A stretch of 64,000 bases of DNA from a virus: the IMG/VR virus record IMGVR_UViG_3300043446_002688. One strand, given 5' to 3'. Below, piece after piece: positions 21,937 to 47,332 of this stretch. Positions within the stretch are counted from its first letter, which is position 1, and every line of letters begins with the position of its first letter. A model generated the notes under the pieces. The model searched no databases. It was not told where the DNA came from and was given only the letters and a program-made list of their open reading frames with translations. A program made the position numbers and the translations under genes.

Positions 21937-21938
21937 TT

Positions 21939-24779
21939 ATGGAAAGAATTAGTTCATTATTTTCTCCAACAATTGTTGCAGCTTCTATACAAAAAGCATT
22001 TCAATATCCAGTAGTGGGTGAAGCAATATACACGGGTGTAGGACTAAACACATGGACCTGTCCTGCTGGTGTTTATTCTGTGTCAGTAGTTTGTGTTGCT
22101 GGTGGAGGAGGTGGTTTTTACAATGCCCAAAACTCTGCAACCGGTGGCGGCGGTGGCGCATTAGCTTATAAAAATACTATTTCTGTTGTTCCTGGTGTAA
22201 CTTATAACTTACAAGTTGGTGAAGGCGGATATACTTCCACAACTGGAATACGCATGTTAGCAACCAATAGCTGGTTTGGAAACACATCAACCGTCTTTGC
22301 TGAGAGAGGTCAGTATGGAAGAACCGCAACAGGAGCAACAACTGTTCAAAGCATAACACAAGGTGGTTTTGGTGGACAAATCTATATTGGTGATGGAGGT
22401 GGACCAGGAGGAAACTGCGGATTACCAACAGTAACGGGCGCACTCAATAATGGTTTAGGTGGCGGCGGTGCAGGTGGTTATAGTGGTTCAGGTGGATCAG
22501 GCGGTTCATCAAACAGCACTGTTGCTTTGAATGGAACTAGCGGAAGTGGTGGTGGTGGTGGCGGCGGCGCCGGTGCTCTGTCTATTAGTGGTGGTGCCGG
22601 TGGCGGTGTGGGTTTATATGGTGAGGGAACTTCTGGAGCTGGTGGTCAAGCTGGAGTAGCATCTAACAGTCCTCTAAGAGCTGGTCAACCTGGTTCAAAT
22701 GGTTCACCATTAGTCGCCAACACAGTAGGTACAACAATCTATAACATTGGTGGTGATTATGGTGGTGGCGGTGGTGCTGGTTACATATATGCTAGCAGAG
22801 GTGCAAACGGTGCAATTCGTATCGTATGGCCTGGAGATTTCAGAACTTTTCCATCACAGAATTTAGAAACACATACAGTTACACAAAACTATCAATATGC
22901 AAACTTACAAATGGGTTATGCTGTATCTTTAAAACCAGTATCAATCTCAGGTAATATTGGACCAGTAACATATACAATATCACCATCCATACCAGCAAAT
23001 ACAAACATAACATTTAATGCAAATACAGGTATACTTTCAGGAAATGCTGCACTTGGATATCCAGAAACTTCACACATAATTTCAACAGTAGATTCTGTTG
23101 GACAATCTTCATCCAATACATTAATAATATCCATTGGTGCACCGTCAGACCAAGTTGTTTTTTCTGGTGATCCTGGTGGTATAGCATTCAACACACTACA
23201 AACAACATGGACAGTACCAGCAAATGTTTATTCAATCAGTATGATTGCAGTTGGTTGTGGTGGTAGTACACTAATCGAGGCTAATGGTTATTCTTCACTA
23301 TCAGGTGCAGGCGGCGGCGCAACAGCATTTGTAAACAATTACAAAGTTACACCAGGACAAGTGTTAGATATTTACATTGATAAACCAAAAATTGGTTATA
23401 ATGTTGTATCAAATGGAACAACTGTCAGTTACAATGGTTCAACAATATGTAAAGCGAATTCTGGTGGAAATTCTACCGCATATTATACAGGACGAGGTTT
23501 TGCAGGAACTTTTGTAACAGGCCAATATGGTTATAATGGTGGAAATGGTGGTAATGTTGGCAGTGGTTTCTATAAAGGTGGCGGTGGCGGCGCAGCTGGT
23601 TATTCAGGCGACGGTGGAGCTGGAGCTCAAGCACTACTAAGTGGTTCTGGTGGAGCTACAGGTAGTGGTGCTGCTGGTGGAGGTGCGCCATCAAATGATG
23701 CTACCGCAACTGGTAAAGGTGGTGGCGGCGGCGGTATTGGATTACAAGGCCAAGGCGCAACCGGCGGCGGCACCTCATATGTAGCAGGTACGGCAGTTGG
23801 TGCACACGGTAGAAATGGATCGTATAGAGGTGATATAGTGCAACTGGTCAGCACCAACCTTGGTGGTGATTATGGTGGTGGTGCTGGTGGTGGAAACTAC
23901 AATACATTAAATGCTGGTGGTTATGGTGGTCCAGGTGCAATTCGTATCATGTGGCCTGGAACACTTAGAAGATATGATGCAAACACAAGAACTGAAGATA
24001 CACAACCAGTTGGTCAAGTAGAATTCACCACTTATGGTGCATACACATGGACATGTCCAGAGGGTGTGTATTCTGTTTCTGCTGTTTGTATTGGTGCTGG
24101 TGGCACCGCTGCGGCAAGTCAGTTTGGTATTGTACAGGCATATGCGGGCGGCGGCGGTGGATTAGGTTATAAAAATAATATTCCTGTTGTTCCAGGACAA
24201 ACTTATACAATTCAAGTTGGTCGAAGAGGTGAATGGGTTGCAAATAACTATGCGTTATTAAGTACAGATTCTTATTTTATTGCAAACACAATTGTTGCTG
24301 GTTTGGCACCGAAACCCTCTGCATGGAATGCTGGCGGTTATGTTGGTGATGGCGGCGGCAATGGCGGCACAGGCGGCACAGCTAGCCAAGGAGCAACAGG
24401 TGGCGGCGGTGCAGGTGGTTACTCAGGTAATGGCGGTAATGGTGGATCTCCTAGTTCTAGTGCTGGAGGCAACGGTTCAGGTGGCGGTGGCGGCGGTGGT
24501 GCTAACTATGGTTCATTATCTGGTGTCAATTATGTTGGTGGCAAAGGCGGCGGCACAGGAATTTATGGACAAGGAACAAGTGGTACAGGCGGTTCAGGTT
24601 TTGTAAGATTATCAACCACATATTATGCAAACAATGGTACTGCTGGTTCAGGTGGTTCTAATCAATTATATGGCGGCGGTGGCGGTGTATATGCTAGTTA
24701 TGGTGGCGATGGAGCAGTAAGATTAATATGGCCCGGCGACCAAAGACAGTTCCCTTCAACAAGAACGGCCAACGAGTAA
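21939..24779 (+). CDS. Glycine-rich adhesin: three Gly-rich domains plus one putative Ig (He_PIG-like) domain
   Basis: Start re-called at ATG 21939, just after the upstream stop. Three TWT[CV]P.[GN]VYS[VI]S...GGGGG...GA[IV]R[IL].WPG units; TYTISPSIPA..ITFNANTGILSG Ig-like unit. Confidence 0.75.
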   Translation: MERISSLFSPTIVAASIQKAFQYPVVGEAIYTGVGLNTWTCPAGVYSVSVVCVAGGGGGFYNAQNSATGGGGGALAYKNTISVVPGVTYNLQVGEGGYTSTTGIRMLATNSWFGNTSTVFAERGQYGRTATGATTVQSITQGGFGGQIYIGDGGGPGGNCGLPTVTGALNNGLGGGGAGGYSGSGGSGGSSNSTVALNGTSGSGGGGGGGAGALSISGGAGGGVGLYGEGTSGAGGQAGVASNSPLRAGQPGSNGSPLVANTVGTTIYNIGGDYGGGGGAGYIYASRGANGAIRIVWPGDFRTFPSQNLETHTVTQNYQYANLQMGYAVSLKPVSISGNIGPVTYTISPSIPANTNITFNANTGILSGNAALGYPETSHIISTVDSVGQSSSNTLIISIGAPSDQVVFSGDPGGIAFNTLQTTWTVPANVYSISMIAVGCGGSTLIEANGYSSLSGAGGGATAFVNNYKVTPGQVLDIYIDKPKIGYNVVSNGTTVSYNGSTICKANSGGNSTAYYTGRGFAGTFVTGQYGYNGGNGGNVGSGFYKGGGGGAAGYSGDGGAGAQALLSGSGGATGSGAAGGGAPSNDATATGKGGGGGGIGLQGQGATGGGTSYVAGTAVGAHGRNGSYRGDIVQLVSTNLGGDYGGGAGGGNYNTLNAGGYGGPGAIRIMWPGTLRRYDANTRTEDTQPVGQVEFTTYGAYTWTCPEGVYSVSAVCIGAGGTAAASQFGIVQAYAGGGGGLGYKNNIPVVPGQTYTIQVGRRGEWVANNYALLSTDSYFIANTIVAGLAPKPSAWNAGGYVGDGGGNGGTGGTASQGATGGGGAGGYSGNGGNGGSPSSSAGGNGSGGGGGGGANYGSLSGVNYVGGKGGGTGIYGQGTSGTGGSGFVRLSTTYYANNGTAGSGGSNQLYGGGGGVYASYGGDGAVRLIWPGDQRQFPSTRTANE

Positions 24780-37220: not shown

Positions 37221-38246
37221 ATGACAACAAAAATACAACCAGCAAACATTGACCAAACACTGGACTACTCAGTTGACCAATTGTCGGCCAATACGGTCGT
37301 GGTTTCTGGTGTTGATGTATTGAGTTATGCACAGTCAGCATTTTTACAGGCAAATTCCTCTTTTGTTCAAGCAAATTCAGCATACACTCAGGCAAACACA
37401 GCAACTACCAACGCAGCAACTGCTGATTCTAAGGCTGTTAGTGCTGGTTCTTATGCAAATGCTGCATTTGTTCAGGCGAACACCGACTACACAACATTAT
37501 CAACAATAAATGGTGTATATGGCGGTTCATCAAATATTCCAGTTATCACTTTGGCCGCAAACGGACGTGTTTCTTCAATCACAAACACATCCATTTCCAT
37601 TCCTGCTGGAACATCCGTATACGGCAACACAGGTCAAATCACCGCAAACGTGTCAACAGGCACTGTTGCTCTAGGTCTTGCTACAACAGCAGTAACTCCT
37701 GGTGTTTATGGTGGCACATCAAATACTGTTACAATAACAGTAGACGCATATGGTAGAGTCACTGCATTATCAAATAATGCCATTAGTGGTGGTGGTGGAG
37801 GTGGTGCAACACTATCGGCGGTTGCTGCAGCAACCACATATTATATCGGACTATCAGCAAGTTCTTCCGGCACTTGGACAGATGCAAGAGTTGATACATC
37901 CAACTTATATTACAGTTCTGCAACAAGCACATTATATTCCACAAACTTTAATACCAGTTCAGATGAGAACCTAAAGTCATCTATTGAAACTATACTAAAT
38001 GCATTAGAAACTGTTAATCTATTAAGAGGTGTTAGTTTCCTTTGGAAGAGTAATGGATTAAAATCGTATGGTGTGATTGCTCAGGAATTAGAAAAGATTA
38101 TTCCTGATTTAGTTACGACAGATGCCAACGGTAGAAAGACTGTTAACTATAATGCTTTGATTGGTTTTTTAATTGAAGCCATCAAAACACAATCAACACA
38201 AATACAAAGTCTAGAAGAAAGAATCACCAGGCTGGAGGAAAAATAA
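37221..38246 (+). CDS. Short fibre with C-terminal peptidase S74 chaperone (341 aa)
   Basis: NTSSDENLKSSI...LRGVSFLWK...YGVIAQELEKIIPDLV...VNYNALIGFLIEAIK; GVYGG..TVDAYGRVT shaft motifs. Confidence 0.85.
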   Translation: MTTKIQPANIDQTLDYSVDQLSANTVVVSGVDVLSYAQSAFLQANSSFVQANSAYTQANTATTNAATADSKAVSAGSYANAAFVQANTDYTTLSTINGVYGGSSNIPVITLAANGRVSSITNTSISIPAGTSVYGNTGQITANVSTGTVALGLATTAVTPGVYGGTSNTVTITVDAYGRVTALSNNAISGGGGGGATLSAVAAATTYYIGLSASSSGTWTDARVDTSNLYYSSATSTLYSTNFNTSSDENLKSSIETILNALETVNLLRGVSFLWKSNGLKSYGVIAQELEKIIPDLVTTDANGRKTVNYNALIGFLIEAIKTQSTQIQSLEERITRLEEK

Positions 38247-39418
38247 TGGCCTTCAATTTTAGTAACGGTGATACACTTGATAAAAAATATTTAAAAGAAT
38301 CCGATTTAATTGATAATTATATCGGTAATAGATTGTGGGCGTGGGGACTGAATAACCACGGTCAGTTAGGAAATAATGCGACTGGTAATTACAACGGTAG
38401 TCCGTTACAAACTATTTCAGGTGGAACTAATTGGAAGCAAACATCCACGGGATATTATCACATTGCTGGAATAAAAACTGATGGCACCTTATGGTTGTGG
38501 GGCGATAATCGTTATTATGGACAGTTAGGAGATAACACAACAACCAAAAAATCTAGCCCTGTACAGACTATAAGTGGTGGCAATAATTGGAATCTTGTCT
38601 CGTGTGGATCCTACTACACAACAACAATTAAAACTGACGGAACGTTGTGGTTATGGGGCAGAAACAATGTTGGTCAATTAGGAACCAATAACACAACCAA
38701 CTATTCCAGTCCCGTTCAAACCATTGCTGCTGGAAATAATTGGAAAAAATTAAGTGCCGGTTTTCAACACGTTGCTGCAATTAAAACCGATGGCACACTG
38801 TGGTTGTGGGGCCAAAATAATAATGGTCAATTGGGCGACAATACTCTAACCAATAAAAGTAGTCCAGCACAAACATTTGGTACCGGAAATAATTGGAATC
38901 AAGTGAGTGTTGGCTCAAGTTTTACTGCTGCGATTAAAACAGATGGTACCTTATGGTTGTGTGGTAATAATCAATATGGTCAATTAGGTGATAACACAAC
39001 AACCAATAAATCCAGTCCTGTACAAACAATTGCAGGCGGAAATAATTGGAAGTCAGTTTCTGCCAGCATTGGTGGCCACATTAGTGCTATTAAAACAGAT
39101 GGTACGTTGTGGCTCTTTGGAAATAATGGTAATGCTCAACTAGGTGATAATACCACAGTATCCAAATCGAGCCCAGTTCAAACTATAACCGGTGGAACAA
39201 ATTGGAAATCTGTTGCTACCGGTTCAAGCCATACTGCCGCTATTAAGACTAATGGCGAGCTGTGGCTTTGGGGGAGTGATGCGTTCGGCCAATTAGGAAC
39301 CAATACTTTTACATCCACATCCAGTCCAGTCCAAACTATATCCAGTGGAACAAATTGGAAACAAGTTTCTTGTGGGTATCTTATTACCTCAGCAACGACT
39401 TTTTCGGATCTACAATAA
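38246..39418 (+). CDS. RCC1/BLIP-II 7-blade beta-propeller protein A
   Basis: Seven ~52-aa repeats AIKTDGTLWLWG.N..GQLG.N.....SSPVQT..GG.NWK.VS.G. Confidence 0.9.
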   Translation: MAFNFSNGDTLDKKYLKESDLIDNYIGNRLWAWGLNNHGQLGNNATGNYNGSPLQTISGGTNWKQTSTGYYHIAGIKTDGTLWLWGDNRYYGQLGDNTTTKKSSPVQTISGGNNWNLVSCGSYYTTTIKTDGTLWLWGRNNVGQLGTNNTTNYSSPVQTIAAGNNWKKLSAGFQHVAAIKTDGTLWLWGQNNNGQLGDNTLTNKSSPAQTFGTGNNWNQVSVGSSFTAAIKTDGTLWLCGNNQYGQLGDNTTTNKSSPVQTIAGGNNWKSVSASIGGHISAIKTDGTLWLFGNNGNAQLGDNTTVSKSSPVQTITGGTNWKSVATGSSHTAAIKTNGELWLWGSDAFGQLGTNTFTSTSSPVQTISSGTNWKQVSCGYLITSATTFSDLQ

Positions 39419-39432
39419 TAAGGAATATAATA

Positions 39433-40077
39433 ATGTTTGTAATCGTATACAATAATCAAGTAATTCTAGGGCCAATGCCATGGAGAAAGTTTTTCTTTGA
39501 AAACATCATAGAAGAAGATTGTGAAGTTCAAGTAACACTACCACAAAAAAATGATGTCCCGTACACAGTAAATGATGAAATTGTCATTCTTCCAGCAAGA
39601 TATACACATGAAGAACACAATCCAATAACACAAAAACACAACGGTCCTTTCTGGACTATTACTGAAACAGAAGCAGTAGGTAATTTTGTTGCGATAGACA
39701 AAGATGTAGAACATTTAAAATCTGAATTGAAACAAATTGTTGCAGATAAAAGATGGAAGAAAGAAGTCGGCGGAATTAAAGTTACTATCAATGATATAGA
39801 ATATTCAGTTGATACCTCTCGTGAAGGTAGAAAAATATACATTGAACAATTACAAATGAACTCTAGTTCATATGATTGGAAGTTCAATGAGGGTTATGTA
39901 ACATTATCTTTGGTTGATTTACAAAATATTGTTCAATCTATTAATGAACATATACAAAATTGTTTTGCAGAAGAACGCAATAGAATCAATCTTATTGATA
40001 GTAAAACATCATTAGAAGATTTAGAATTATTACACAATGAATTTAATCCAAGGGTGACCTTAAATGGCATACAGTGA
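39433..40077 (+). CDS. DUF4376-like fibre-associated protein
   Basis: Start re-called at ATG 39433 (AGGA RBS at 39421). C-terminal RWKKEVGGIKV...DTSREGR...DWKFNEGYVTLS..DLQNI...HIQNCFAEE resembles DUF4376. Confidence 0.7.
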   Translation: MFVIVYNNQVILGPMPWRKFFFENIIEEDCEVQVTLPQKNDVPYTVNDEIVILPARYTHEEHNPITQKHNGPFWTITETEAVGNFVAIDKDVEHLKSELKQIVADKRWKKEVGGIKVTINDIEYSVDTSREGRKIYIEQLQMNSSSYDWKFNEGYVTLSLVDLQNIVQSINEHIQNCFAEERNRINLIDSKTSLEDLELLHNEFNPRVTLNGIQ

Positions 40078-41275
40078 AAGTGGAGTTCCTATACCCATTG
40101 ATGGATATTTTAGTCCAGGTGGATATGTAACTAAACAATATTTGTTTGATGCATATCCACAACTTAGTGACCAAGCAAAGAGTGCTGGATTGTGGGGATG
40201 TGGTTATGCTCTCGTCGGTCAACTGGGCGACAGAACTAGTGTTGACAAGTCTAGCCCAGTACAAACTATATCGGGGGGCGCCAACTGGAAGCAAGTAACA
40301 TCCAGTTGGGGGCCATCGGCAGCAGCAATCAAAACAGACGGTACCCTGTGGTTATGGGGATATAATGCTTATGGTGAATTAGGTAACAATAACACAAATT
40401 CAGTCAGTTCTCCCGTACAGACAATTAGTGCAGGGACGAACTGGATTCAAGTTGGCGCCGGAGATAGAACATTTGGAGCAATCAAAACAGATGGCACATT
40501 ATGGATGTGGGGGAAAAATAACTCTGGCCAGTTGGGCGATAACACTGCAACTAATAGATCCAGTCCAGTTCAAACAGTATCTGGTGGAACTAATTGGAAG
40601 TACACCACTGGTGGAGATTTGTTTATGTCAGCAATCAAAACAGACGGTACCCTGTGGTTATGGGGAGACAACGGCAATGGTCAATTGGGTACAAATAATA
40701 CAACCAATAGGTCAAGTCCAGTACAAACTATATCCGCTGGTACCAATTGGAAACAGGTTTCAGCTGGCGGATCAACAGTTGCGGCAATCAAAACAGACGG
40801 TACCCTGTGGTTATGGGGATTTAATGGTTATGGTGGGTTGGGTGATAATACGAGCGTAAGAAAATCCAGTCCAGTTCAAACGGTTTCTGGTGGAAATAAT
40901 TGGAAACAGTGTTCTGTCAGTAGTTACAATCATATTGCATCCATTAAGACTAATGGTACCCTGTGGTTATGGGGTAATAATAATTATGGTCAATTAGGTA
41001 CAAATAATACAACCAATACGTCAAGTCCAGTGCAAACTATATCCGCTGGTACCAATTGGAAACAGGTTTCAACTGGCAATTACAGTACATACTCTTTGAA
41101 AACGGATGGCACTCTTTGGACTTGGGGAGCTAATTTTTATGGTAATCTGGGAACCAATAACACAACACATTACTCTAGTCCAGTGCAAACAGTTAGTGGT
41201 GGAACTAATTGGAAACAAATTAGCGGCGGAACAGGAAAATTTTTTGCCATCAAAGATTTTAATGAGGACTTCTAA
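40064..41275 (+). CDS. RCC1/BLIP-II 7-blade beta-propeller protein B
   Basis: Seven repeats of the same consensus as protein A. Confidence 0.9.
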   Translation: MAYSESGVPIPIDGYFSPGGYVTKQYLFDAYPQLSDQAKSAGLWGCGYALVGQLGDRTSVDKSSPVQTISGGANWKQVTSSWGPSAAAIKTDGTLWLWGYNAYGELGNNNTNSVSSPVQTISAGTNWIQVGAGDRTFGAIKTDGTLWMWGKNNSGQLGDNTATNRSSPVQTVSGGTNWKYTTGGDLFMSAIKTDGTLWLWGDNGNGQLGTNNTTNRSSPVQTISAGTNWKQVSAGGSTVAAIKTDGTLWLWGFNGYGGLGDNTSVRKSSPVQTVSGGNNWKQCSVSSYNHIASIKTNGTLWLWGNNNYGQLGTNNTTNTSSPVQTISAGTNWKQVSTGNYSTYSLKTDGTLWTWGANFYGNLGTNNTTHYSSPVQTVSGGTNWKQISGGTGKFFAIKDFNEDF

Positions 41276-41277
41276 TC

Positions 41278-42417
41278 ATGTCGTATAATAATTTAGAGGA
41301 ATTGTTGGTACCGGTAAGTTATTTTAACCAAGGCGGATTGTGGTCATGGGGATACAACGGATTTGGAGCTGCTGGTGATGAAACCTTAGTCAATAGATCC
41401 AGTCCTGTGCAAACTGTTGCTTCCGGATCAAATTGGAAATTAGTTGGAATCGGTGGCTATCATAATGCAGCAATAAAAACAGACGGCACGTTATGGACAT
41501 GGGGATATAATAGCAATGGTACATTAGGTAATAACACAACCGCTAGCACATCCAGTCCTGTGCAAACAATTGCAGCCGGTACAAATTGGAAGTATGTATA
41601 TTCTAATCAAATGTCAGTGTTCGCAATCAAAACAGACGGATCATTGTGGGTATGGGGAAATAATGGAAACGGTCAACTGGGAACAGGTAACATCACAAAT
41701 TATTCCAGTCCTGTACAACTTGGTACAGAAAAAAATTGGAAATTAATTTCTTCTAATTCATACTTTTCTGCGGCAATCAAAACAGATGGCACGTTATGGA
41801 CATGGGGATATAACAATGACGGTACTTTGGGTGATAACACAAGAATAGACAAATCTAGTCCTGTACAAACAATTGCAGCCGGTACAAATTGGAAATCAAC
41901 ATCAACGGGAATATATCATGTAACAGCAATCAAAACAGATGGTACACTATGGTTATGGGGCAGAAACAATGTTGGTCAATTAGGTACAAATAATATAACA
42001 AACAGGTCTAGTCCAGTTCAAACTGTTGCAGGTGGAACTAATTGGAAACAATCATCTGGCGGACAGTCTCATACTGCCGCAATCAAAACAGATGGTACAC
42101 TATGGTTGTGGGGCCGAAACATTTATGGTCAATTAGGAACCAACAACATAACAGATTATTCAAGTCCAGTTCAAACTGTTGCATCGGGTACCAATTGGAA
42201 ACTATTGGCATGTGGAAGAAACCATACTGCCGCAATCAAAACAGATGGCACATTATGGTTATGGGGTTATAATAATTATGGCCAATTAGGTGATAATACA
42301 GTACTGTCTAAATCTAGTCCAATACAAACAATTTCAGGTGGTACTAATTGGAAACAAGTATCCTCTGTGGGGTTTAACACATCCGCAATCAACGGCACCT
42401 GGAGAACCATCACTTAA
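41278..42417 (+). CDS. RCC1/BLIP-II 7-blade beta-propeller protein C
   Basis: Seven repeats of the same consensus as protein A. Confidence 0.9.
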   Translation: MSYNNLEELLVPVSYFNQGGLWSWGYNGFGAAGDETLVNRSSPVQTVASGSNWKLVGIGGYHNAAIKTDGTLWTWGYNSNGTLGNNTTASTSSPVQTIAAGTNWKYVYSNQMSVFAIKTDGSLWVWGNNGNGQLGTGNITNYSSPVQLGTEKNWKLISSNSYFSAAIKTDGTLWTWGYNNDGTLGDNTRIDKSSPVQTIAAGTNWKSTSTGIYHVTAIKTDGTLWLWGRNNVGQLGTNNITNRSSPVQTVAGGTNWKQSSGGQSHTAAIKTDGTLWLWGRNIYGQLGTNNITDYSSPVQTVASGTNWKLLACGRNHTAAIKTDGTLWLWGYNNYGQLGDNTVLSKSSPIQTISGGTNWKQVSSVGFNTSAINGTWRTIT

Positions 42418-42443
42418 ACATCAGGAAACTGAACATATATAAT
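42414..42443 (+). promoter_or_regulatory. Possible sigma70-like promoter for the enzyme island
   Basis: Perfect TATAAT at 42438-42443 in the intergenic gap; only a weak -35 (TTAAAC/TAAACA) at 17-18 nt spacing. Confidence 0.35.
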
Positions 42444-42473: not shown

Positions 42474-43037
42474 ATGAAACTAAACCTTGGATCCGGTTCA
42501 AAAAGAATTCCCGGTTATTTAAATATTGATAATGATGCTGGTTCAAAACCAGATTTTGTTATCGACTTAGAAAAAGATAAACTACCATTTGAAGATAGTT
42601 CTGTGGACAGTATTATTGCTCATCACATACTAGAACACCTGGGTGATGGGTTTTTTCATTGTGTCAAGGAACTATACCGTGTGTGTAAACACGGCACAAC
42701 GATTGATGTTAGAGTTCCACATCCTAGACACGACACATTCTTAATAGACCCCTCTCATAAAAGACCTGTATATCCACACACATTGGATATGTTCTCTAAA
42801 GAACGTAACCTAAGAGATATTGCCGCAGGTGGATGTGAAACACCTATTGGTTTAATCAATAATGTTGACATGCGTGTTTTAAATTTTTCTCCTGTTTTGG
42901 ATGAATATTGGCAAAAACAATTTCAACAAATGACCGAAGAACAGTGTGAACATGCAGCAAGGTCTTTTAATAATGTTATCAATGAATATCATATACAATG
43001 GGTAGTTTATAAAGATGAATCCGTTATCGACCGCTGA
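42474..43037 (+). CDS. Class I SAM-dependent methyltransferase (type 11-like)
   Basis: Motif I KLNLGSGSKR, DL...LPFEDSSVDSIIAHHILEHL and VRVPH...DPSH. Confidence 0.85.
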   Translation: MKLNLGSGSKRIPGYLNIDNDAGSKPDFVIDLEKDKLPFEDSSVDSIIAHHILEHLGDGFFHCVKELYRVCKHGTTIDVRVPHPRHDTFLIDPSHKRPVYPHTLDMFSKERNLRDIAAGGCETPIGLINNVDMRVLNFSPVLDEYWQKQFQQMTEEQCEHAARSFNNVINEYHIQWVVYKDESVIDR

Positions 43038-44334
43038 ATTTTTTATTAAAATTAAACAAAGTGAGAAAGCTAAAATAGTTCTAGACCTTCTTAAACCATA
43101 TGCCACCGGTTTGGGTGAAATGGACCAACTAGGTAAATTATATGCCGAGATTAGAGAGTTCAATGATACACTAGAACTGGCACAAAAAATGTATGCATTG
43201 GTGACCAACGATGATGCCAGATTTGATGCAAGAGTTAATATCATTCGTGCATATCTAAACCTTAACAAGCCAAAAGAAGCATTGGTTTATATCGGTATTA
43301 ACGAAAAGGAAAGACCAAATGACCATCCAAATCAAATGGATAAGGCAATGGCATATTTCTTACTTGACAGAAAAGATGAAGGTGAAAAGATACTGAGAAA
43401 CATTTTAACCGAGCCGCACACAGATGATATTGATTTTAGAGTAAACTTTAATCTAGGTACATATGACTTACGTAATGGAAATTTCAAAGAAGGTTTGAGG
43501 CATGTGTTACTAGATGGTAGAAAATTAAACATCTGGGAATCATTCAACTTTCCAAAAAATCAACTATGGGAAGGCACACCACAACCGGGTAAAACAATCG
43601 TGCTTTGTGCCGAAGGTGGTATTGGTGACGAAATCATTTCAGTTAGATTTATGAAACACTTTAAAGATGTTGGAATGAATCCTATTTGGTTTACAAATAG
43701 AAAAGATATTGCAAGCATTTTCAATCGTTGTGGTTTTGAAACGGTAACAAATCTTAAAGAAATATCATATGATTGGTTATGGACATATTCTATGCCAAGC
43801 CCAACTTACTTGGATTTAGAAGAAGATGATTTATGGTACGGCACATATCTGAAACCATTAAACGTTTCACCTAAATTACCAAACACTGGCAAAAAGAAAA
43901 TTGGCATCAAGTGTATGGGTAATCCAAAGTATGACCAAGACTTACATAGAACTATTCCATTTGAAGAATTGATTGATAGTATTCCGGAAGATTATGAAAT
44001 TTATTCTTTTCACATAGATGAAGATTTTAGTCATCCTAGAGTTATACAATTAAAAGATAAAATTAAAACCTGGGACGATACACTTGATTACATCAATCAA
44101 ATGGATATTGTGGTTTCTAGTTGTACATCATTGATACATGCAGCCGGTGCAATTGGAAAACAATCAGTTGTTATTATTCCAATTCTAACATATTACACTT
44201 GGGCAAAACCAGAGTATCACACCAAATGGTATGGTGATAATCTGACAATCTTCAGGCAAAGTGAGTATGATAATTGGAAAGCACCATTACTTGAATTGAA
44301 TGATTATTTGAAGAATGAAAATACAAACAATTAA
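43015..44334 (+). CDS. TPR-repeat protein fused to a GT-B (GT9-like) glycosyltransferase domain
   Basis: Helical TPR-like N-half, then LWEGTPQPGKTIVLCAEGGIGDEIISVRF, IGIKCMGNP and WDDTLDYINQMDIVVSSCTSLIHAAGAIGK. These match the EQG.GD / W.G.P / D.V.T.DT...HLAGA.G motifs of TPR-glycosyltransferases. Confidence 0.8.
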   Translation: MNPLSTAEFFIKIKQSEKAKIVLDLLKPYATGLGEMDQLGKLYAEIREFNDTLELAQKMYALVTNDDARFDARVNIIRAYLNLNKPKEALVYIGINEKERPNDHPNQMDKAMAYFLLDRKDEGEKILRNILTEPHTDDIDFRVNFNLGTYDLRNGNFKEGLRHVLLDGRKLNIWESFNFPKNQLWEGTPQPGKTIVLCAEGGIGDEIISVRFMKHFKDVGMNPIWFTNRKDIASIFNRCGFETVTNLKEISYDWLWTYSMPSPTYLDLEEDDLWYGTYLKPLNVSPKLPNTGKKKIGIKCMGNPKYDQDLHRTIPFEELIDSIPEDYEIYSFHIDEDFSHPRVIQLKDKIKTWDDTLDYINQMDIVVSSCTSLIHAAGAIGKQSVVIIPILTYYTWAKPEYHTKWYGDNLTIFRQSEYDNWKAPLLELNDYLKNENTNN

Positions 44335-44668
44335 TATAAATCTATCTTCCATAAAATCTGAAGAGCCGGAAGAAATTGTGCCGTGTGGCACCTGTACACT
44401 TTGTTGTGAAAAATTATCACCATTTCTATCACCGGAAGAAGTTGCTTCAGGATTATATCCATTGAGTTTAATAAATCCAACAATAGAACAAAAACAAATT
44501 AATCCAGATATCGGACCCGTTGTCGTTTTATACAGAAAGAAAGAAGGTGGATGTGGAATGTTTATTGACGGCAAATGTTCGATATATGAATACAGACCTA
44601 AAGCTTGCAGACAATTTGATTGTCGCAAAGGACACCACCCAACTATACCCAACATGATTGACAAATGA
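44315..44668 (+). CDS. YkgJ/FliB-like CxxCxxCC cysteine-cluster (Zn/Fe-S) protein
   Basis: CGTCTLCC ... CGMFIDGKCSIYEYRPKACRQFDC. Confidence 0.85.
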   Translation: MKIQTININLSSIKSEEPEEIVPCGTCTLCCEKLSPFLSPEEVASGLYPLSLINPTIEQKQINPDIGPVVVLYRKKEGGCGMFIDGKCSIYEYRPKACRQFDCRKGHHPTIPNMIDK

Positions 44669-45450
44669 AAACATTACATTTTTTATCAGGATTACCAAGA
44701 TCCGGATCAACATTACTGGCGAGTATACTAAACCAAAACCCACAGGTATATGTAACACCCACAAGTCCTATGTTGAATGTGACAGTGAAGATGCAGGACG
44801 CATGGAGAGAAGATCCGACAGTCAAAGCAAACTACTTTGAGGAACAAGCACGCAATATTACCAAAGCAGTTCTTCCTGCTTTTTGGCAGCACAGACCAGA
44901 ACCCATTATCATAGATAAAGGTAGAGGTTGGGCAAAGAATATGTTAACAGCCAATGCGTTGTTTGAAAAGAAAATCAAAGTCATTGTAATGGAACGAGAC
45001 TTACCCAGTATTATGGCTAGTTGGTTAACTATTATCAGAAAACAAAAAGAATGTTACTTAGACGAAACCATTATGCGTAAAGGTTTTCCGCCAACCGATG
45101 ATAACCGCATGGCAGAGATGTGGTTTGATATGGTCAAAGACTGCATGGAAGGTACATATCAAATTAAAAAAGAAGTTCCTGACCAAATAGTGGTGGTGAC
45201 ATATGATGATTTGATGAATGATGCCAGAACACAACTACAAAGAATTGAAGATTTTTTAGAGTTACCAAAATTCAATTATGACTTTGAAAACATCATCAAC
45301 GATACCGTAGATGACGATTTGGTGGCCTGGGGTTTTGATGGGTTACACACCATCAGACCTAAGTTGGAAAAAACCGCAAAAGATCCAAGAATTATTTTGG
45401 GTGACGAACTATACAATAGATTTGTGGAATTAGAAAAACAATATGTATAA
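44665..45450 (+). CDS. PAPS-dependent sulfotransferase (Sulfotransfer_3-like)
   Basis: 5'-PSB loop FLSGLPRSGSTLLASIL; IIDKGRGW; 3'-PB motif MERDLPSIMAS; YDDLM..A...L..I.DFL. Confidence 0.85.
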   Translation: MKTLHFLSGLPRSGSTLLASILNQNPQVYVTPTSPMLNVTVKMQDAWREDPTVKANYFEEQARNITKAVLPAFWQHRPEPIIIDKGRGWAKNMLTANALFEKKIKVIVMERDLPSIMASWLTIIRKQKECYLDETIMRKGFPPTDDNRMAEMWFDMVKDCMEGTYQIKKEVPDQIVVVTYDDLMNDARTQLQRIEDFLELPKFNYDFENIINDTVDDDLVAWGFDGLHTIRPKLEKTAKDPRIILGDELYNRFVELEKQYV

Positions 45451-46336
45451 TGTATTAAATTTTATTCACACATCAAACTTTTACAATGAAGAACAAGTTA
45501 AAGGATTGAACTCAATAGTAAATACTTTAGTGTATGCACCTACTGAATTTGGTAGTGTTAATACAGGTTTTAATTATATTCAACCAGATGCAATCAAAAC
45601 ATTCAGTGAAGTATTAAATACAAAAGTAACAATCAGTGAAGAATCCGGTTACTTTTACAAGCCAAATACAGGAATTAGATACAATACTTTCACAAATTAC
45701 ACCGAGTGGAAATTTGTTGTTGCAATTCAACCAACAATCTTTACGATGTTTTACCACAAAACTGGTGTCACTTCTGCTCTACAAAATTATAATTTTAATT
45801 ACAATAATCTTTTTGAGTGGGAATACCAGACACAGATATTAATGGAACCAGGTCAAGGATTATTTTATAGGCCATGGATGTTTCATGCCTTCAGTGAGCC
45901 AACAATCATTCAGTCGTTTGATATAACAGAAAATCCAACACCACTATCAAATACCATTTTAGTTATGGGTGAAAAAGGTTCCGGAAAAACCACTTTCAGT
46001 AAAAAATTAGCAGACAGACTGAAGGCCACATATATACATGGTGAAACGATAAACGAAATGTTTAACGATACCGATACATCCATAGAAGGTGAAAACAGAC
46101 AGGCCGAACGATTGAAAAAGTTGGCAGTGTTGGCACCAACAGAGTTTACGGTTATAGATTTCAAATGTGAACGTTTATCATCACGTGATTACTTATCACC
46201 CAATTTTGTGGTTTGGATGAATACCGTGGAAATAAAGTCGGACACCTTTGAAATACCTAAAAGAGCAAATGTGGTATATGATTCTTTCGATATTAATATG
46301 GATAAATTTATTGACAAAATGATGGAGAAAAAATGA
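45443..46336 (+). CDS. Fusion of a DUF6445/2OG-Fe(II)-like DSBH domain and a degenerate APS-kinase-like P-loop domain
   Basis: N-half EWKFVVAIQ...FYHKTG...EWEY...PGQGLFYRPWMFHA. C-half ILVMGEKGSGKTTF aligns by eye with the kinase half of the next gene. Confidence 0.6.
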   Translation: MYNVLNFIHTSNFYNEEQVKGLNSIVNTLVYAPTEFGSVNTGFNYIQPDAIKTFSEVLNTKVTISEESGYFYKPNTGIRYNTFTNYTEWKFVVAIQPTIFTMFYHKTGVTSALQNYNFNYNNLFEWEYQTQILMEPGQGLFYRPWMFHAFSEPTIIQSFDITENPTPLSNTILVMGEKGSGKTTFSKKLADRLKATYIHGETINEMFNDTDTSIEGENRQAERLKKLAVLAPTEFTVIDFKCERLSSRDYLSPNFVVWMNTVEIKSDTFEIPKRANVVYDSFDINMDKFIDKMMEKK

Positions 46337-47127
46337 CACAACGAATTTTAATTATGGGATTGCCAGGTTCTGGTAAAACATACCTAGCACAATATGTACT
46401 GGATCATTTACAATCAGCCAACAAGAAAGTTGGTTGGTTGAATGCTGATGATGTACGCAAAAAATATAATGACTGGGACTTCAGTACAGAAGGAAGAATC
46501 AGGCAAAGTCACCGCATGAGAGAACTGGCAGACTCCATGACTGATATGGATTATGTCATCTGTGATTTTGTGGCACCTTTGGTTGAAATGCGTAACAACT
46601 TCAAAGCAGACTGGACTGTGTGGGTTGACACTATCGAAAAGGGGAGATTTGAAGATACCAACAAGGCTTTTATTCCACCAGAGGTATATGATTTTAGAAT
46701 CACGGAACAGAACAGTGAAAAATGGAGTGAATTTATTGCACACCACATCTTAGGAAACTTCCGTAGACCAGTATTTGACTGGCAAAAAGAAACGGTACAA
46801 ATGTTAGGTCGTTGGCAACCATGGCATGCTGGTCACCGTGCTTTGTTTGAGCGTGCAATTCAAAAGACAGGTCAGGTCGTAATACAGATTAGAGACTGTC
46901 AAGGTTGGCAAGGATCAAATCCTTTTGCAATCGAACAGGTCAAACAATATATCAGACGAGACTTGGACCCTATTTACCAGGGAAAATATGAAATTCAGGT
47001 TGTGCCAAATATTGTAAACATTACCTATGGACGTGATGTGGGATATAAGATTGAACAAGAGGTATTTGATGATAAGACACATGAAATCTCTGCTACAAAA
47101 ATTCGTAAATCAATGGGCCTTAAATAA
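46333..47127 (+). CDS. APS-kinase-like domain fused to a HIGH-superfamily nucleotidyltransferase (candidate minimal PAPS synthase)
   Basis: GLPGSGKT P-loop, WLNADDVR, DWDFSTEGRIRQ and ICDFVAP (CysC-like). Then GRWQPWHAGH (46807-46836), YGRDVG (GRD at 47029-47037) and ISATKIR. Confidence 0.7.
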   Translation: MTQRILIMGLPGSGKTYLAQYVLDHLQSANKKVGWLNADDVRKKYNDWDFSTEGRIRQSHRMRELADSMTDMDYVICDFVAPLVEMRNNFKADWTVWVDTIEKGRFEDTNKAFIPPEVYDFRITEQNSEKWSEFIAHHILGNFRRPVFDWQKETVQMLGRWQPWHAGHRALFERAIQKTGQVVIQIRDCQGWQGSNPFAIEQVKQYIRRDLDPIYQGKYEIQVVPNIVNITYGRDVGYKIEQEVFDDKTHEISATKIRKSMGLK

Positions 47128-47329
47128 ATCTGAAACTGCAACCAGAAGCTTTGTAAAGGCATATAGTTACAGGTTCTGTGGTACATTTACCACGATGTTA
47201 ATTTCTTATGCTTTTACTGGCGAATGGATAGTTAGTCTGAGTATAGGTGCCACAGAAATGGTTGTAAAACCGTTTATCTACTGGTGTCACGAAAGAGTGT
47301 GGAATGGCATAGGATGGGGTCGAATATAA
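47081..47329 (+). CDS. DUF2061 family small membrane protein
   Basis: ETATRSFVKAYSYR...TMLISYAFTG...SIGATEMVVKPFIYWCHERVWNGIGWG is the DUF2061 signature. The nearest in-frame ATG is 47081, inside the upstream gene. Confidence 0.75.
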   Translation: MKSLLQKFVNQWALNKSETATRSFVKAYSYRFCGTFTTMLISYAFTGEWIVSLSIGATEMVVKPFIYWCHERVWNGIGWGRI

Positions 47330-47332
47330 ATA
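47325..47332 (+). promoter_or_regulatory. T4-type late promoter TATAAATA for g13
   Basis: Exact consensus overlapping the DUF2061 stop codon; GGAG RBS downstream. Confidence 0.8.

Follow-up and report, generated by a model that had tools for sequence, protein, structure and literature searches.

The analysed window, a 64,000-nucleotide stretch of IMGVR_UViG_3300043446_002688, comes from an uncultured T4-like phage. Between positions 42474 and 47329, it carries seven plus-strand open reading frames, here denoted o1 to o7, all of which overlap their neighbours (Table 1). The successive overlaps, from o1 through o7, span 23, 20, 4, 8, 4 and 101 nt, the last of these shrinking to 47 nt should translation of o7 begin at the fourth ATG (47081). 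Fibre and RCC1 genes detected with PHROG lie upstream, on the same strand, and the genes for gp13, gp14, gp15, gp16 and gp17 follow downstream, so that the original prediction of seven overlapping genes set between the fibre genes and g13 holds in its coordinates, overlaps and surroundings. The proteins encoded upstream are rich in Ser, Thr and Asn, as had also been predicted, with S+T at 22-27% compared to 9-13% in the module enzymes; such richness is usual for fibres. No signal peptide or transmembrane segment was detected in any of o1-o6, and no sugar-nucleotide genes were found in the 64 kb window.

Table 1. Genes and promoters in and around the seven-gene module
Feature	Position	Strand	Details
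Short fibre gene	37221-38246	+	PHROG tail fibre match
RCC1 propeller a	38246-39418	+	PHROG RCC1 match
Small fibre protein	39355-40077	+	PHROG match
RCC1 b	40064-41275	+	PHROG RCC1 match
RCC1 c	41278-42417	+	PHROG RCC1 match
Candidate sigma-70-like promoter TAAACA-17-TATAAT	42415-42443	+	ahead of o1; 10/12 consensus
o1, methyltransferase	42474-43037	+	187 aa; class I SAM-dependent; Methyltransf_11 and PHROG 6636
o2, TPR + GT9-fold GT-B glycosyltransferase	43015-44334	+	439 aa; model, VIA-align, Foldseek
o3, CxxCxxCC, YkgJ-type, Cys-rich putative metal-binding protein	44315-44668	+	117 aa; PF03692
o4, PAPS-dependent sulfotransferase	44665-45450	+	261 aa; Sulfotransfer_3
o5, DSBH-kinase fusion	45443-46336	+	297 aa; DUF6445/PhyH-like structure match, o6 paralogy
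o6, APS-kinase-like + NMNAT-like nucleotidyltransferase	46333-47127	+	264 aa; APS_kinase, structure, profile
o7, DUF2061 small protein	47027-47329	+	100 aa; Pfam
T4-type late promoter TATAAATA of gp13	47325-47332	+	24 nt before gp13 ATG; overlaps o7 stop codon

The late promoter of g13 bounds the block on its downstream side, as anticipated, and late motifs of the TATAAATA kind were found in 17 of 26 gp13 upstream regions of relatives. The promoter proposed at 42438 fared less clearly: the sequence ahead of o1 is the sole candidate module promoter in the window, sigma-70-like rather than late, but matches of this quality are no more frequent in the window than expected by chance (45 observed, 40.6 expected). 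Strong motifs do occur at the position ahead of the module in relatives, where 68 distinct upstream regions yielded TTGAC[AT]-N16-18-TAnAnT in 9 (0.12 in shuffles) and TATAAATA/CTAAATA in 20 (3.1 in shuffles); late-promoter motifs were found in 20-33 of the 68.

Domain composition of the module proteins

Pfam, structure and profile comparisons agree with all seven family assignments made in the original prediction. The methyltransferase o1 matches Methyltransf_11 with 30.6 bits (cut-off 21.2). In o2, residues ~1-172 form a genuine TPR domain (E 1e-38 against PDB TPR proteins in a profile search), and the AlphaFold model (pLDDT 95.9) assigns to the C-terminal half (~177-439) a GT9 (heptosyltransferase) fold, with VIA-align Z scores of 17.6 for WaaF, 17.4 for 3tov, 17.0 for TibC and 16.4 for WaaC, and about 10.8 for the next unrelated fold. 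The protein itself falls below the Pfam PF01075 threshold, a family matched by 6 of 56 o2 homologues; D205 in its GGIGD motif is invariant among the homologues. With Foldseek, the whole model is matched best by SPY, OGT and XcOGT, and known protein O-glycosyltransferases share its TPR+GT-B architecture (PMC7591256).

The sulfotransferase o4 (Sulfotransfer_3, 66.7 bits, cut-off 27) belongs to a family with an invariant 5'-PSB motif, PRSGST, and invariant 3'-PB residues R111/S119. Among PDB structures, the family profile comes nearest to protein-tyrosine sulfotransferases (E 3e-10), the catalytic Glu of which pairs with TPTSP in the alignment. In o6, a P-loop kinase (1-144) precedes a NadM-NMNAT-like HIGH nucleotidyltransferase (~150-264). 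The protein matches APS_kinase with 44.5 bits (cut-off 21.1), and the top five structural matches of the kinase half are APS kinases (Z 15.3-17.7, 18-25% identity), whereas the NCBIfam equivalog yields 36 bits against a cut-off of 138.7. For the nucleotidyltransferase half, NMNAT chains are the only profile matches above noise (E 5e-6), and no ATP-sulfurylase match was obtained up to E = 1. A reading of o6 as a "mini PAPS synthase" is thus unsupported for this NMNAT-like half.

The remaining genes appear to be accessory. The small protein o3 matches PF03692 (35.2 bits, cut-off 23); its proposed likeness to FliB could not be upheld as orthology because no NCBIfam model matched at E <= 0.01. The DSBH half of o5 (1-165) resembles DUF6445/PhyH-like DSBH clusters (Atlas, TM 0.80), and the C-terminal half (170-297) is a diverged P-loop paralogue of the o6 kinase (29% identity, E 2e-15). 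The iron-binding His of the HxD/E motif is replaced by Arg (GIRYN compared to IHF[DENS] in homologues), and N37, A38, D39, R42, F50 and R55, all invariant in the o6 family, are missing from the kinase half, so that o5, judging by these substitutions, is probably degenerate and non-catalytic in both halves. Finally, o7 matches DUF2061 with 63.3 bits (cut-off 23.1).

A conserved phage module linked to RCC1 propellers

We surveyed 151 related viral loci representing 120 gene orders, 110 of them distinct orders with a GT9 gene. The near-constant core consists of the methyltransferase and the GT9-fold glycosyltransferase, usually with the sulfotransferase (94 of the 110 orders) and often with the APS-kinase-like kinase; in 62 of 95 cases, the TPR-GT9 gene directly follows that of the methyltransferase, which is present in 29 of 30 well-flanked loci. 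RCC1 genes are equally constant companions (94/110 gene orders; 28/30 well-flanked loci). The module is not scattered away from fibre loci, a linkage on which the original prediction depended: RCC1/fibre genes are located within 10 kb in 28 of the 30 well-flanked relatives, and the adjacency to propeller/fibre arrays is found in at least seven rearranged layouts, including RCC1 genes downstream (L135), inversion of the RCC1 array (L105) and sulfotransferase-GT9 fusions with RCC1 genes on either side. In most close relatives, a DSBH gene is flanked on both sides by RCC1 genes. Only three cultured or deposited phages were found to encode the GT9 protein, and these same three hold the closest multi-copy RCC1 genes. 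The cultured cyanophages S-SRM01 and BUCT-ZZ01 carry the module.

Relatives fuse the parts pairwise, in favour of a single system. The sulfotransferase is fused to GT9, in place of the TPR domain, in 15 gene orders, the kinase to the nucleotidyltransferase in 12 and DSBH to the kinase in 5; the methyltransferase is fused to TPR-GT9 in relatives and joined to the GT9 domain in L051 and BUCT-ZZ01, in the latter in the order GT9+methyltransferase. The CxxCxxCC gene occurs at 36 of the 110 module loci; in L123 its fusion partner is an FkbM methyltransferase and in L135 a DSBH domain. DUF2061 is fused to an APS-kinase-like domain (L131:8352-9029) or sits beside the kinase (L148), being otherwise absent from relatives. 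Relatives further encode a PfkB kinase+cytidylyltransferase (HldE-like), a cupin, an SDR epimerase, a 4,6-dehydratase, GT2, a second GT9-like protein and FkbM/RfbT-like methyltransferases. We regard the seven genes of the window as a pared-down form of a single conserved phage module.

The APS-kinase-like kinase occurs in 10 of 23 loci with the sulfotransferase and in none of 7 without it (30 well-flanked loci), a co-occurrence that by itself is not significant (Fisher p 0.064); moreover, the loci are related rather than independent. Kinase+nucleotidyltransferase proteins of the o6 type are also found in Sano-like siphophages that have no o4-type sulfotransferase, among early/DNA-metabolism genes.

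Comparison with known systems

The original prediction likened the block to a flagellin glycosylation island, and the likeness survives at the level of architecture only. In FlmG, the flagellin O-glycosyltransferase of Caulobacter crescentus, substrate binding resides in the TPR half, and the GT half by itself shows no activity in vivo (PMC7591256); FlmG and the OGT/SPINDLY class share with o2 an N-terminal TPR followed by a GT-B domain in a soluble cytoplasmic enzyme. However, o2 has the GT9 fold (Z about 17), not that of GT41 (XcOGT, Z 9.9 at rmsd 9.6), the window holds no flagellin and no pseudaminic-acid pathway or other nonulosonic-acid genes, the sugar-nucleotide genes of relatives are heptose-type, and o5 is probably inactive. 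By fold, the closer counterparts are TibC/AAH and WaaC/WaaF (CAZy GT9), of which TibC, as summarized in PMC7591256, acts in the cytoplasm, where it adds O-linked heptose to a repetitive surface adhesin (Lu et al. 2014). The HldE-like, ADP-heptose-type enzymes of the relatives provide a further link, although o2 shares only about 10% identity with TibC, WaaC and WaaF, and the latter two (320-331 residues) have no room for a TPR domain.

Similar in logic are the bacterial operons for which Iyer et al. (2010, PMC2938197) predicted hydroxylases, methyltransferases, sulfotransferases and PAPS synthetases that act on tail-collar or collagen-like proteins. Here, too, a DUF6445/PhyH-like DSBH, a methyltransferase, a sulfotransferase and a PAPS-making kinase lie beside fibre-type proteins, and the co-encoded structural protein is the proposed substrate. 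Those operons, known from prediction only, lack a glycosyltransferase core, whereas the phage module centres on GT9 and the methyltransferase, and its DSBH copy in the window, unlike theirs, has no iron-binding His. Glycosylation of virion proteins by glycosyltransferases of the phage itself, as proposed here, is known from mycobacteriophages (Freeman et al. 2023, as summarized in PMC12619734 and PMC12801897). In these summaries, the glycans reside on the capsid and tail tube of Actinobacteria phages, the glycosyltransferases are unrelated to o2, and neither sulfation nor methylation is described. Like CysC and bifunctional PAPS synthases, o6 has a kinase half best matched to APS kinases by HMM and structure, and its kinase-then-nucleotidyltransferase order is that of animal PAPS synthase, but around the lid the kinase is shorter by about 40 residues, and the second half is NMNAT-like.

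Proposed function and alternatives

Given the RCC1/fibre linkage and the TPR+GT-B architecture of o2, the module can reasonably be read as glycosylating its target and then adding methyl and sulfate groups. We propose, at about an even chance, that propeller or fibre proteins are O-glycosylated in the cytoplasm and then methylated and sulfated with phage-boosted PAPS; the RCC1 and fibre proteins encoded at 37221-42417 are the putative and probable substrates. All module enzymes would be soluble and work in the cytoplasm of the infected cell. The TPR domain of o2 would dock on new propeller or fibre proteins and its GT9 domain would use a nucleotide sugar to attach what is probably a heptose-like residue; o1 would methylate, and o4 sulfate, the sugar decoration or nearby residues, while the o6 kinase would phosphorylate host-made APS to give more PAPS. 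In this reading, o3 would serve the methyltransferase/oxygenase steps as a Cys-rich metal-binding helper, o5 would be a decayed oxygenase+kinase copy, and the kinase would have variable accessories in o7 and in the NMNAT-like half of o6. We infer the protein substrate, sugar, donor, order of steps and biological pay-off, the substrate from gene neighbourhood only, so that of the original claim that the phage modifies its own fibres, the linkage and the architecture stand and the substrate stays putative.

A protein-directed enzyme is favoured by the SPY/OGT/XcOGT matches, the TibC match and the tyrosine-sulfotransferase-like profile of o4; sugar supply, by the HldE-like, epimerase and dehydratase genes of relatives; PAPS supply, by a kinase that is nearest to APS kinases and, in the well-flanked loci, occurs only together with the sulfotransferase; and modification of the phage's own proteins, by the late-promoter motifs ahead of relatives' modules. 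Against it count the TPTSP at the position of the tyrosine sulfotransferases' Glu, the kinase+nucleotidyltransferase proteins of sulfotransferase-less phages, the lack of sugar-nucleotide genes and the non-late promoter candidate in the window, and the non-significant kinase-sulfotransferase link. Furthermore, GT9, GT2, HldE-like, epimerase and FkbM proteins are the ordinary LPS/O-antigen toolkit, and this leads to the main rival, which we consider possible but rather unlikely, namely, that a methylated or sulfated sugar is placed on the host LPS core, O-antigen or exopolysaccharide during infection. With similarly modest probability, such remodelling would mask the propellers' receptor, causing superinfection exclusion, or keep progeny off debris. 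Receptor-masking genes can adjoin receptor-binding genes, as T5 llp does oad, so the substrate cannot be read from the neighbourhood. Most functionally characterized GT9 enzymes are LPS heptosyltransferases, with WaaC/WaaF among the top structural matches of o2, the GT2, FkbM/RfbT-like, HldE-like and epimerase genes are typical of LPS loci, the sigma-70-like promoters in 9 of 68 upstream regions, with a weak one in the window, would fit early expression, and in published cyanophage work such clusters are interpreted as modifying the host surface (PMC12801897). Yet a TPR docking domain is foreign to the matched LPS heptosyltransferases, the whole o2 model matches protein-modifying TPR-glycosyltransferases, o1-o6 carry no membrane-targeting or membrane-spanning segments, and the interleaving of enzyme genes in RCC1 arrays, with many late-promoter motifs, fits virion assembly better.

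Other targets, namely, a sulfated or methylated glycosylated small molecule or peptide, or DNA, are improbable. Phage DNA hypermodification also uses P-loop kinases and glycosyltransferases, the o6 family keeps company with DNA-metabolism genes in Sano-like phages, and related oxygenase/sulfotransferase sets are tied to secondary-metabolite pathways (PMC2938197). However, no hallmark genes of peptide synthesis, carrier proteins or DNA modification were found in the module across the 151 loci. The module is invariably located in the fibre/neck block, and neither the TPR-GT architecture nor the close association with RCC1 genes is accounted for by such targets. That the genes are unrelated morons, without a common function, which have accumulated at a plastic site flanked by fibre and neck genes is very improbable indeed: gene content does vary among relatives, o7 is nearly unique to the window phage and o5 looks decayed, but the methyltransferase-GT9 pair is conserved, sulfotransferase and kinase are frequent partners, and eight kinds of pairwise fusion are unexpected of unrelated genes, which disfavours this reading. 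Should the phage indeed glycosylate, methylate and sulfate its own propellers and fibres, the pay-off would be shielding, charge or host-range tuning.

Genomic setting and expression of the module

The window derives from an uncultured T4-like phage, of whose virion module it forms a part, and its large terminase is 54-56% identical to cyanomyovirus terminases. Between the last RCC1 propeller gene and the neck gene gp13, seven plus-strand ORFs (o1-o7) are found exactly where the original prediction placed them, each overlapping the next. Searched by megablast against 50,697 phage records, the island DNA gave zero matches, and in a distant search mode the only matches among deposited phages were to RCC1 and gp13. 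PADLOC identified no defence systems, returning only a marginal AbiO match to the P-loop.

Features of the locus and of related loci cited in the text
Feature	Coordinates	Strand	Assignment or position
Gly-rich protein	21900-24779	+	959 aa
Short fibre, RCC1 a, small fibre protein, RCC1 b, RCC1 c (in this order)		+	upstream of o1
Candidate promoter	42438		TAAACA-17-TATAAT
o1	42474-43037	+	class I SAM methyltransferase
o2	43015-44334	+	TPR and GT9-like domains
o3	44315-44668	+	PF03692 CxxCxxCC protein (Pfam)
o4	44665-45450	+	sulfotransferase
o5	45443-46336	+	DUF6445/PhyH-like DSBH domain joined to a copy of the o6 kinase
o6	46333-47127	+	APS-kinase-like domain and NMNAT-like nucleotidyltransferase (NT) half
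o7	47027-47329	+	DUF2061 protein
Late promoter TATAAATA			overlaps o7 stop codon, 24 nt before gp13
gp13, gp14, gp15, gp16, gp17 (in this order)			downstream of o7
BUCT-ZZ01 fusion	L163:7872-9587		GT9-like domain and o1-type methyltransferase, 571 aa
Xylella phage Sano protein	L002:5565-6738		full-length o6-type kinase + NMNAT-like protein
Fusion in a related locus	L131:8352-9029		APS-kinase-like + DUF2061 (Pfam-confirmed)

The island had been described as bounded by two promoters. The downstream one, ahead of gp13, is indeed a perfect T4-type late promoter; the site at 42438 matches the promoter consensus no better than chance in this AT-rich region, and no convincing terminator lies between the RCC1 genes and the island. 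Among relatives, we compared 68 distinct upstream regions, each preceding the module gene that comes first after an RCC1 gene. The late motif, TATAAATA or CTAAATA, is present in 20 of these (shuffles: mean 3.1, maximum 11) and a near-consensus TTGAC[AT]-N16-18-TAnAnT in 9 (shuffles: mean 0.12, maximum 2); in the control set of gp13 upstream regions, the respective counts are 17/26 and 0/26. It follows from these counts that the module is often placed under late-type promoters and sometimes under promoters for the host RNA polymerase, which in those relatives probably entails early expression. Within the late structural block at six loci (L014, L016, L020, L023, L097, L136), a near-perfect TTGACA-N17-TATAAT precedes the methyltransferase/TPR-GT9 genes; in other relatives the same position is taken by TATAAATA or CTAAATA. 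The window itself carries only a weak sigma-70-like site ahead of the module.

Elsewhere in the window, the sole GC-rich stretch (0.447), which also has a strongly positive GC skew, encodes a protein in which Gly makes up 25.9% of the residues and which has three internal repeats with an IR[IL].WPG..R-like motif at the end of each. This protein was considered as a collagen-like substrate and rejected, being devoid of G-X-Y repeats.

A TPR-fused GT9-like transferase

In Pfam, the o2 protein has only a weak TPR match; the model built from a 56-homologue alignment (pLDDT 95.9) consists of about 10 TPR-type helices in residues 1-170 followed by a compact two-lobed Rossmann (GT-B) domain. The resemblance to a flagellin glycosylation island that had been proposed for this locus stands insofar as TPR and GT-B are combined here in one soluble protein (TPR profile E 1e-38, with structural matches to GT-B) and fails with respect to the accompanying genes: flagellin genes are absent from the locus, where the neighbours are fibre, RCC1 and neck genes, and the Pfam-annotated sugar genes of the relatives include none for nonulosonic (pseudaminic or legionaminic) acids.

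In an all-against-all structural search, the catalytic domain of o2 is closest to WaaF (1psw, Z 17.6), a Veillonella GT9 enzyme (3tov, 17.4), TibC (4rap, 17.0) and WaaC (2h1f, 16.4), with 224-240 residues aligned to these GT9 structures at an rmsd of 3.0-3.5, compared with Z of about 10-11 for unrelated GT-B enzymes and 10.8 for the next unrelated fold. When the whole o2 model is submitted to Foldseek, SPY, XcOGT and OGT rank at the top, albeit at a low TM of 0.28-0.39; XcOGT, however, aligns at Z 9.9 with an rmsd of 9.6, and the GT9 structures fit the catalytic domain far better. As judged from these models, the SPY/OGT/XcOGT ranking probably reflects the shared TPR+GT-B architecture rather than a shared catalytic family. 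At the gathering score, o2 has no match to PF01075 (Glyco_transf_9), which is matched at E <= 0.01 by 6 of its 56 homologues (best 9e-5). The invariant Asp205 (in GGIGD) is located in the loop that follows strand one of the GT domain, the place of the catalytic Asp in GT9 enzymes.

The family is large: in metagenome protein sets, o2 has 904 homologues at E <= 0.001 among 90% clusters, many of them 74-91% identical to it, and 16,850 representatives among 50% clusters, giant multi-GT proteins included. The latter (P0177, P0182, P0185 and similar) span 1,400-3,100 aa, and in each of them the o2-type GT9-like domain occurs three to eight times. The CxxCxxCC protein o3 was matched by no NCBIfam model at E <= 0.01; presumably, FliB, the flagellin lysine methylase, belongs to the same PF03692 family. 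Neither signal peptides nor transmembrane segments were found in o1-o6.

The sulfotransferase and the kinase family

The o4 protein, a sulfotransferase of the PAPS-dependent type, is well above the cut-off for Sulfotransferase PF13469 (66.7 bits against 27), has both the 5'-PSB and 3'-PB motifs, and shares invariant R12, G14, T16, R111 and S119 with 32 diverse homologues. Compared with the PDB, the family profile of these 32 homologues scores best against TPST1/2 (E 3e-10 to 4e-7), with the CurM/OLS sulfotransferases also close and carbohydrate sulfotransferases far lower-scoring (0.018). The TPST segment CGEET, where the catalytic base presumably lies, aligns to TPTSP in the o4 family, without the acid, and identification of o4 as a TPST proper was rejected because of this replacement of the catalytic-Glu segment.

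The kinase half of o6 exceeds the PF01583 (APS_kinase) cut-off (44.5 bits against 21.1), and APS kinases take the first five places among its structural matches (Z 15.3-17.7, 18-25% identity), with gluconate kinase, PSTK and Kti12 ranking behind them. The match to the TIGR00455 equivalog, at 36.2 bits, is far below the cut-off of 138.7, and the domain comprises about 135-145 residues, versus 143-186 in the matched solved APS kinase chains. Its conserved motifs are NAD.vR, D[WL][DG]FS, [GD]R..Q and DFVAP; some relatives retain NKDLGFS..DR. The C-terminal half, modelled with moderate to low confidence (pLDDT 35-83), is highly conserved (GRWQPWHxGH, SNPF, YGRDVGY, ISATKIR). A profile of this half matches only NadM-type NMN adenylyltransferases (E 5e-6, 1e-4 and 6e-3) and yields no ATP sulfurylase match up to E = 1; NCBIfam likewise returns NMNAT models. 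For this half, the notion of o6 as a bifunctional "mini PAPS synthase" was rejected on this sequence evidence.

Full-length proteins of the o6 type, 38-41% identical, are also encoded by Xylella phage Sano and related Stenotrophomonas and Xanthomonas phages, among early genes and directly after a NADAR/YbiA-like gene. These siphophages lack an o4-family sulfotransferase, and the kinase+NMNAT fusion may therefore serve purposes other than sulfation, such as the metabolism of NAD or ADP-ribose.

In o5, the DSBH half is recognizable by comparison of predicted models (the Atlas model of o5 against DUF6445 clusters: TM 0.79-0.80 over about 160 residues), with the HxD/E...H iron triad lost: R79 (in GIRYN) is found where 12 homologues have His, and the acid position is N, drifting between N, D and S throughout the fused DSBH-kinase clade. 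Stand-alone DSBH copies in relatives retain H-F-E and the distal His. Similarly, the kinase half lacks N37, A38, D39, R42, F50 and R55, all of which are invariant in 22 o6-family members. The fusion is nevertheless kept open in nine protein clusters at 42-76% identity, and we read o5, from its sequence, as a putative non-catalytic remnant or scaffold.

The DUF2061 domain of o7 begins where o6 stops, in the +1 frame, with a 101-nt overlap if the first ATG is used. An APS-kinase-like domain is fused directly to DUF2061 in one relative, and in another the two genes are adjacent; a dedicated search for longer, fused DUF2061 forms found none, and the literature gave no information on this domain. 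For the o6/o7 overlap, an independent gene, a frameshift product and an assembly indel are all possible explanations.

Linkage to RCC1 propellers and the fusion network

IMG/VR was surveyed twice, with the sulfotransferase as the centre in one case and TPR-GT9 in the other (the latter locus scan with a 7-sequence alignment as query), which yielded 151 loci with 120 distinct gene orders, ORFs in the relatives being called from the first ATG only. The closest relatives show the order RCC1, fibre, RCC1, DSBH, RCC1, methyltransferase, (FkbM methyltransferase), TPR-GT9, (230-aa protein), (DUF6445), CxxC, (GT2), sulfotransferase, kinase, gp13; the window is, therefore, a trimmed version. Among the 110 gene orders with a GT9 gene, all from phylogenetically related loci, RCC1 and the sulfotransferase are each found in 94, the methyltransferase in 71, DSBH in 45, the kinase in 42 and CxxC in 36; of the 30 loci flanked by 6 kb or more on each side, RCC1 is present in 28 and the methyltransferase in 29.

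The predicted linkage to fibre-type loci is borne out by this synteny survey, adjacency to RCC1 surviving quite different layouts: an S-SRM01-like one (S-SRM01 itself has both TPR-GT9 and the sulfotransferase); a run of six RCC1 genes, after which come the methyltransferase and TPR-GT9; two RCC1 genes, a sulfotransferase-GT9 fusion, two further RCC1 genes and kinase-NT; an inverted RCC1 array (L105); RCC1 downstream of the module (L135); and, in BUCT-ZZ01, a GT9-methyltransferase fusion placed directly after an RCC1 protein of 700 aa and a tail fibre gene. Deposited phages with o2 relatives are S-SRM01, AG-345-E08 and BUCT-ZZ01 only, the same three phages in which the closest RCC1 genes, present in multiple copies, are found; in about 20 phages with more distant RCC1 proteins, o2 relatives are absent. 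The BUCT-ZZ01 fusion (GT9-like domain, 44-357; methyltransferase, 382-551) is annotated as a "hypothetical protein" and its RCC1 neighbour as a "BNR repeat domain protein"; the host of this Synechococcus phage is the model strain S. elongatus PCC 7942. A scan of bacterial genomes for o2 relatives recovered only four MAG contigs, without informative cellular context. A 135-kb contig of an Acidimicrobiaceae MAG (CAYVOK010000005.1) encodes an epimerase, a methyltransferase, two TPR-GT9 proteins, a sulfotransferase and DSBH, and RCC1 genes are absent within 8 kb. It represents either a phage contig binned in error or a copy of the module in a cellular genome.

Gene fusions tie the components together. 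The sulfotransferase and GT9 form a single ORF in 15 gene orders, with the sulfotransferase in place of the TPR; the methyltransferase is joined to GT9 in BUCT-ZZ01 and to TPR-GT9 in L051; CxxC is fused to the FkbM methyltransferase and to DSBH, DSBH to the kinase (5 gene orders), and the kinase to NT (12 gene orders). As each island gene is linked to another by at least one fusion, the sequences argue strongly that all seven belong to one pathway. In the well-flanked TPR-GT9 loci, the kinase occurs only beside a sulfotransferase (10/23 versus 0/7; p 0.064, in related loci), a weak test that points in the right direction.

Many relatives carry additional genes, namely, a PfkB kinase and a cytidylyltransferase (often fused, HldE-like; about 25 of the 110 gene orders), a cupin, an SDR epimerase, a GDP-mannose-4,6-dehydratase-like enzyme, GT2, a second GT9-like gene and more methyltransferases. 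This complement is of the nucleotide-heptose or deoxy-sugar type, consistent with a GT9 transferase. Within the 64-kb window, there are no sugar-nucleotide genes, HldE-like ones included.

What is modified?

The mechanism we consider best supported, at about even odds, has the phage decorate its own propeller or fibre proteins in the cytoplasm. Under this scenario, the TPR of o2 would dock the protein substrate and its GT9 domain would add a sugar, after which o1 would methylate and o4 would sulfate, with the o6 kinase converting host APS to PAPS. The fold is shared with TibC, a protein heptosyltransferase that adds sugar to an adhesin, and docking by the TPR is proposed by analogy to FlmG, for which it has been shown (PMC7591256). 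Sulfation of the sugar is favoured by the sulfotransferase-GT9 fusion, and sulfation of protein is hinted at by the TPST-like profile. A more radical version, which we regard as improbable, has the TPST-like sulfotransferase O-sulfating the variable face of the receptor-binding RCC1 propellers directly, with o6 as a complete miniature PAPS synthase whose NMNAT-like half was recruited to adenylylate sulfate; if true, the phage would have the first sulfated virion, together with a new, minimal way of making PAPS. Our literature search found neither a sulfated phage particle nor proteomic evidence for this RCC1 subfamily in phage virions.

The main rival explanation is remodelling of the host envelope, to which we assign a modest probability, clearly below that of virion decoration. 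The enzyme families of the module are those of LPS synthesis, and receptor-masking genes can adjoin receptor-binding genes, as in the case of T5 llp. The cyanophage literature interprets such clusters as envelope-directed (PMC12801897). Targets other than the virion or the envelope have a slim chance, and, given the strong argument from fusions for one pathway, that the genes share no common function is very unlikely.

Relation to known systems and implications

TPR-fused protein glycosyltransferases are already well known, and virion glycosylation has been described for mycobacteriophages (Freeman et al. 2023, as cited in PMC12619734). Bacterial oxygenase/methyltransferase/sulfotransferase/PAPS-synthetase operons beside tail-collar proteins have been proposed by Iyer et al. 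(PMC2938197), and the mechanism favoured here follows the same logic. We came across no description, in the literature searched, of aquatic T4-like phages in which a conserved GT9+methyltransferase(+sulfotransferase+APS-kinase) module accompanies arrays of RCC1 propeller genes, and the S-SRM01 genome paper does not mention the module genes. The present analysis contributes the network of fusions, the structural match of the o6 kinase half to APS kinases, the recognition of the other half of o6 as NMNAT-like, the decay of o5, a census of promoters, and two cultured systems, S-SRM01 and BUCT-ZZ01.

Should the host envelope turn out to be the target, the module would be a receptor-masking device genetically coupled to receptor-binding genes, which is also of interest. 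If, instead, it is virion propellers or fibres that become glycosylated, methylated and sulfated, virion glycosylation would extend beyond mycobacteriophages, and there would be an answer to the question of the role of phage sulfotransferases, which "remains unclear" according to a 2023 paper (PMC10580990). Post-translational chemistry would then constitute a hidden layer of host range in a group of aquatic T4-like phages that is itself widespread, such that the structure or sequence of receptor-binding proteins alone would mispredict binding.
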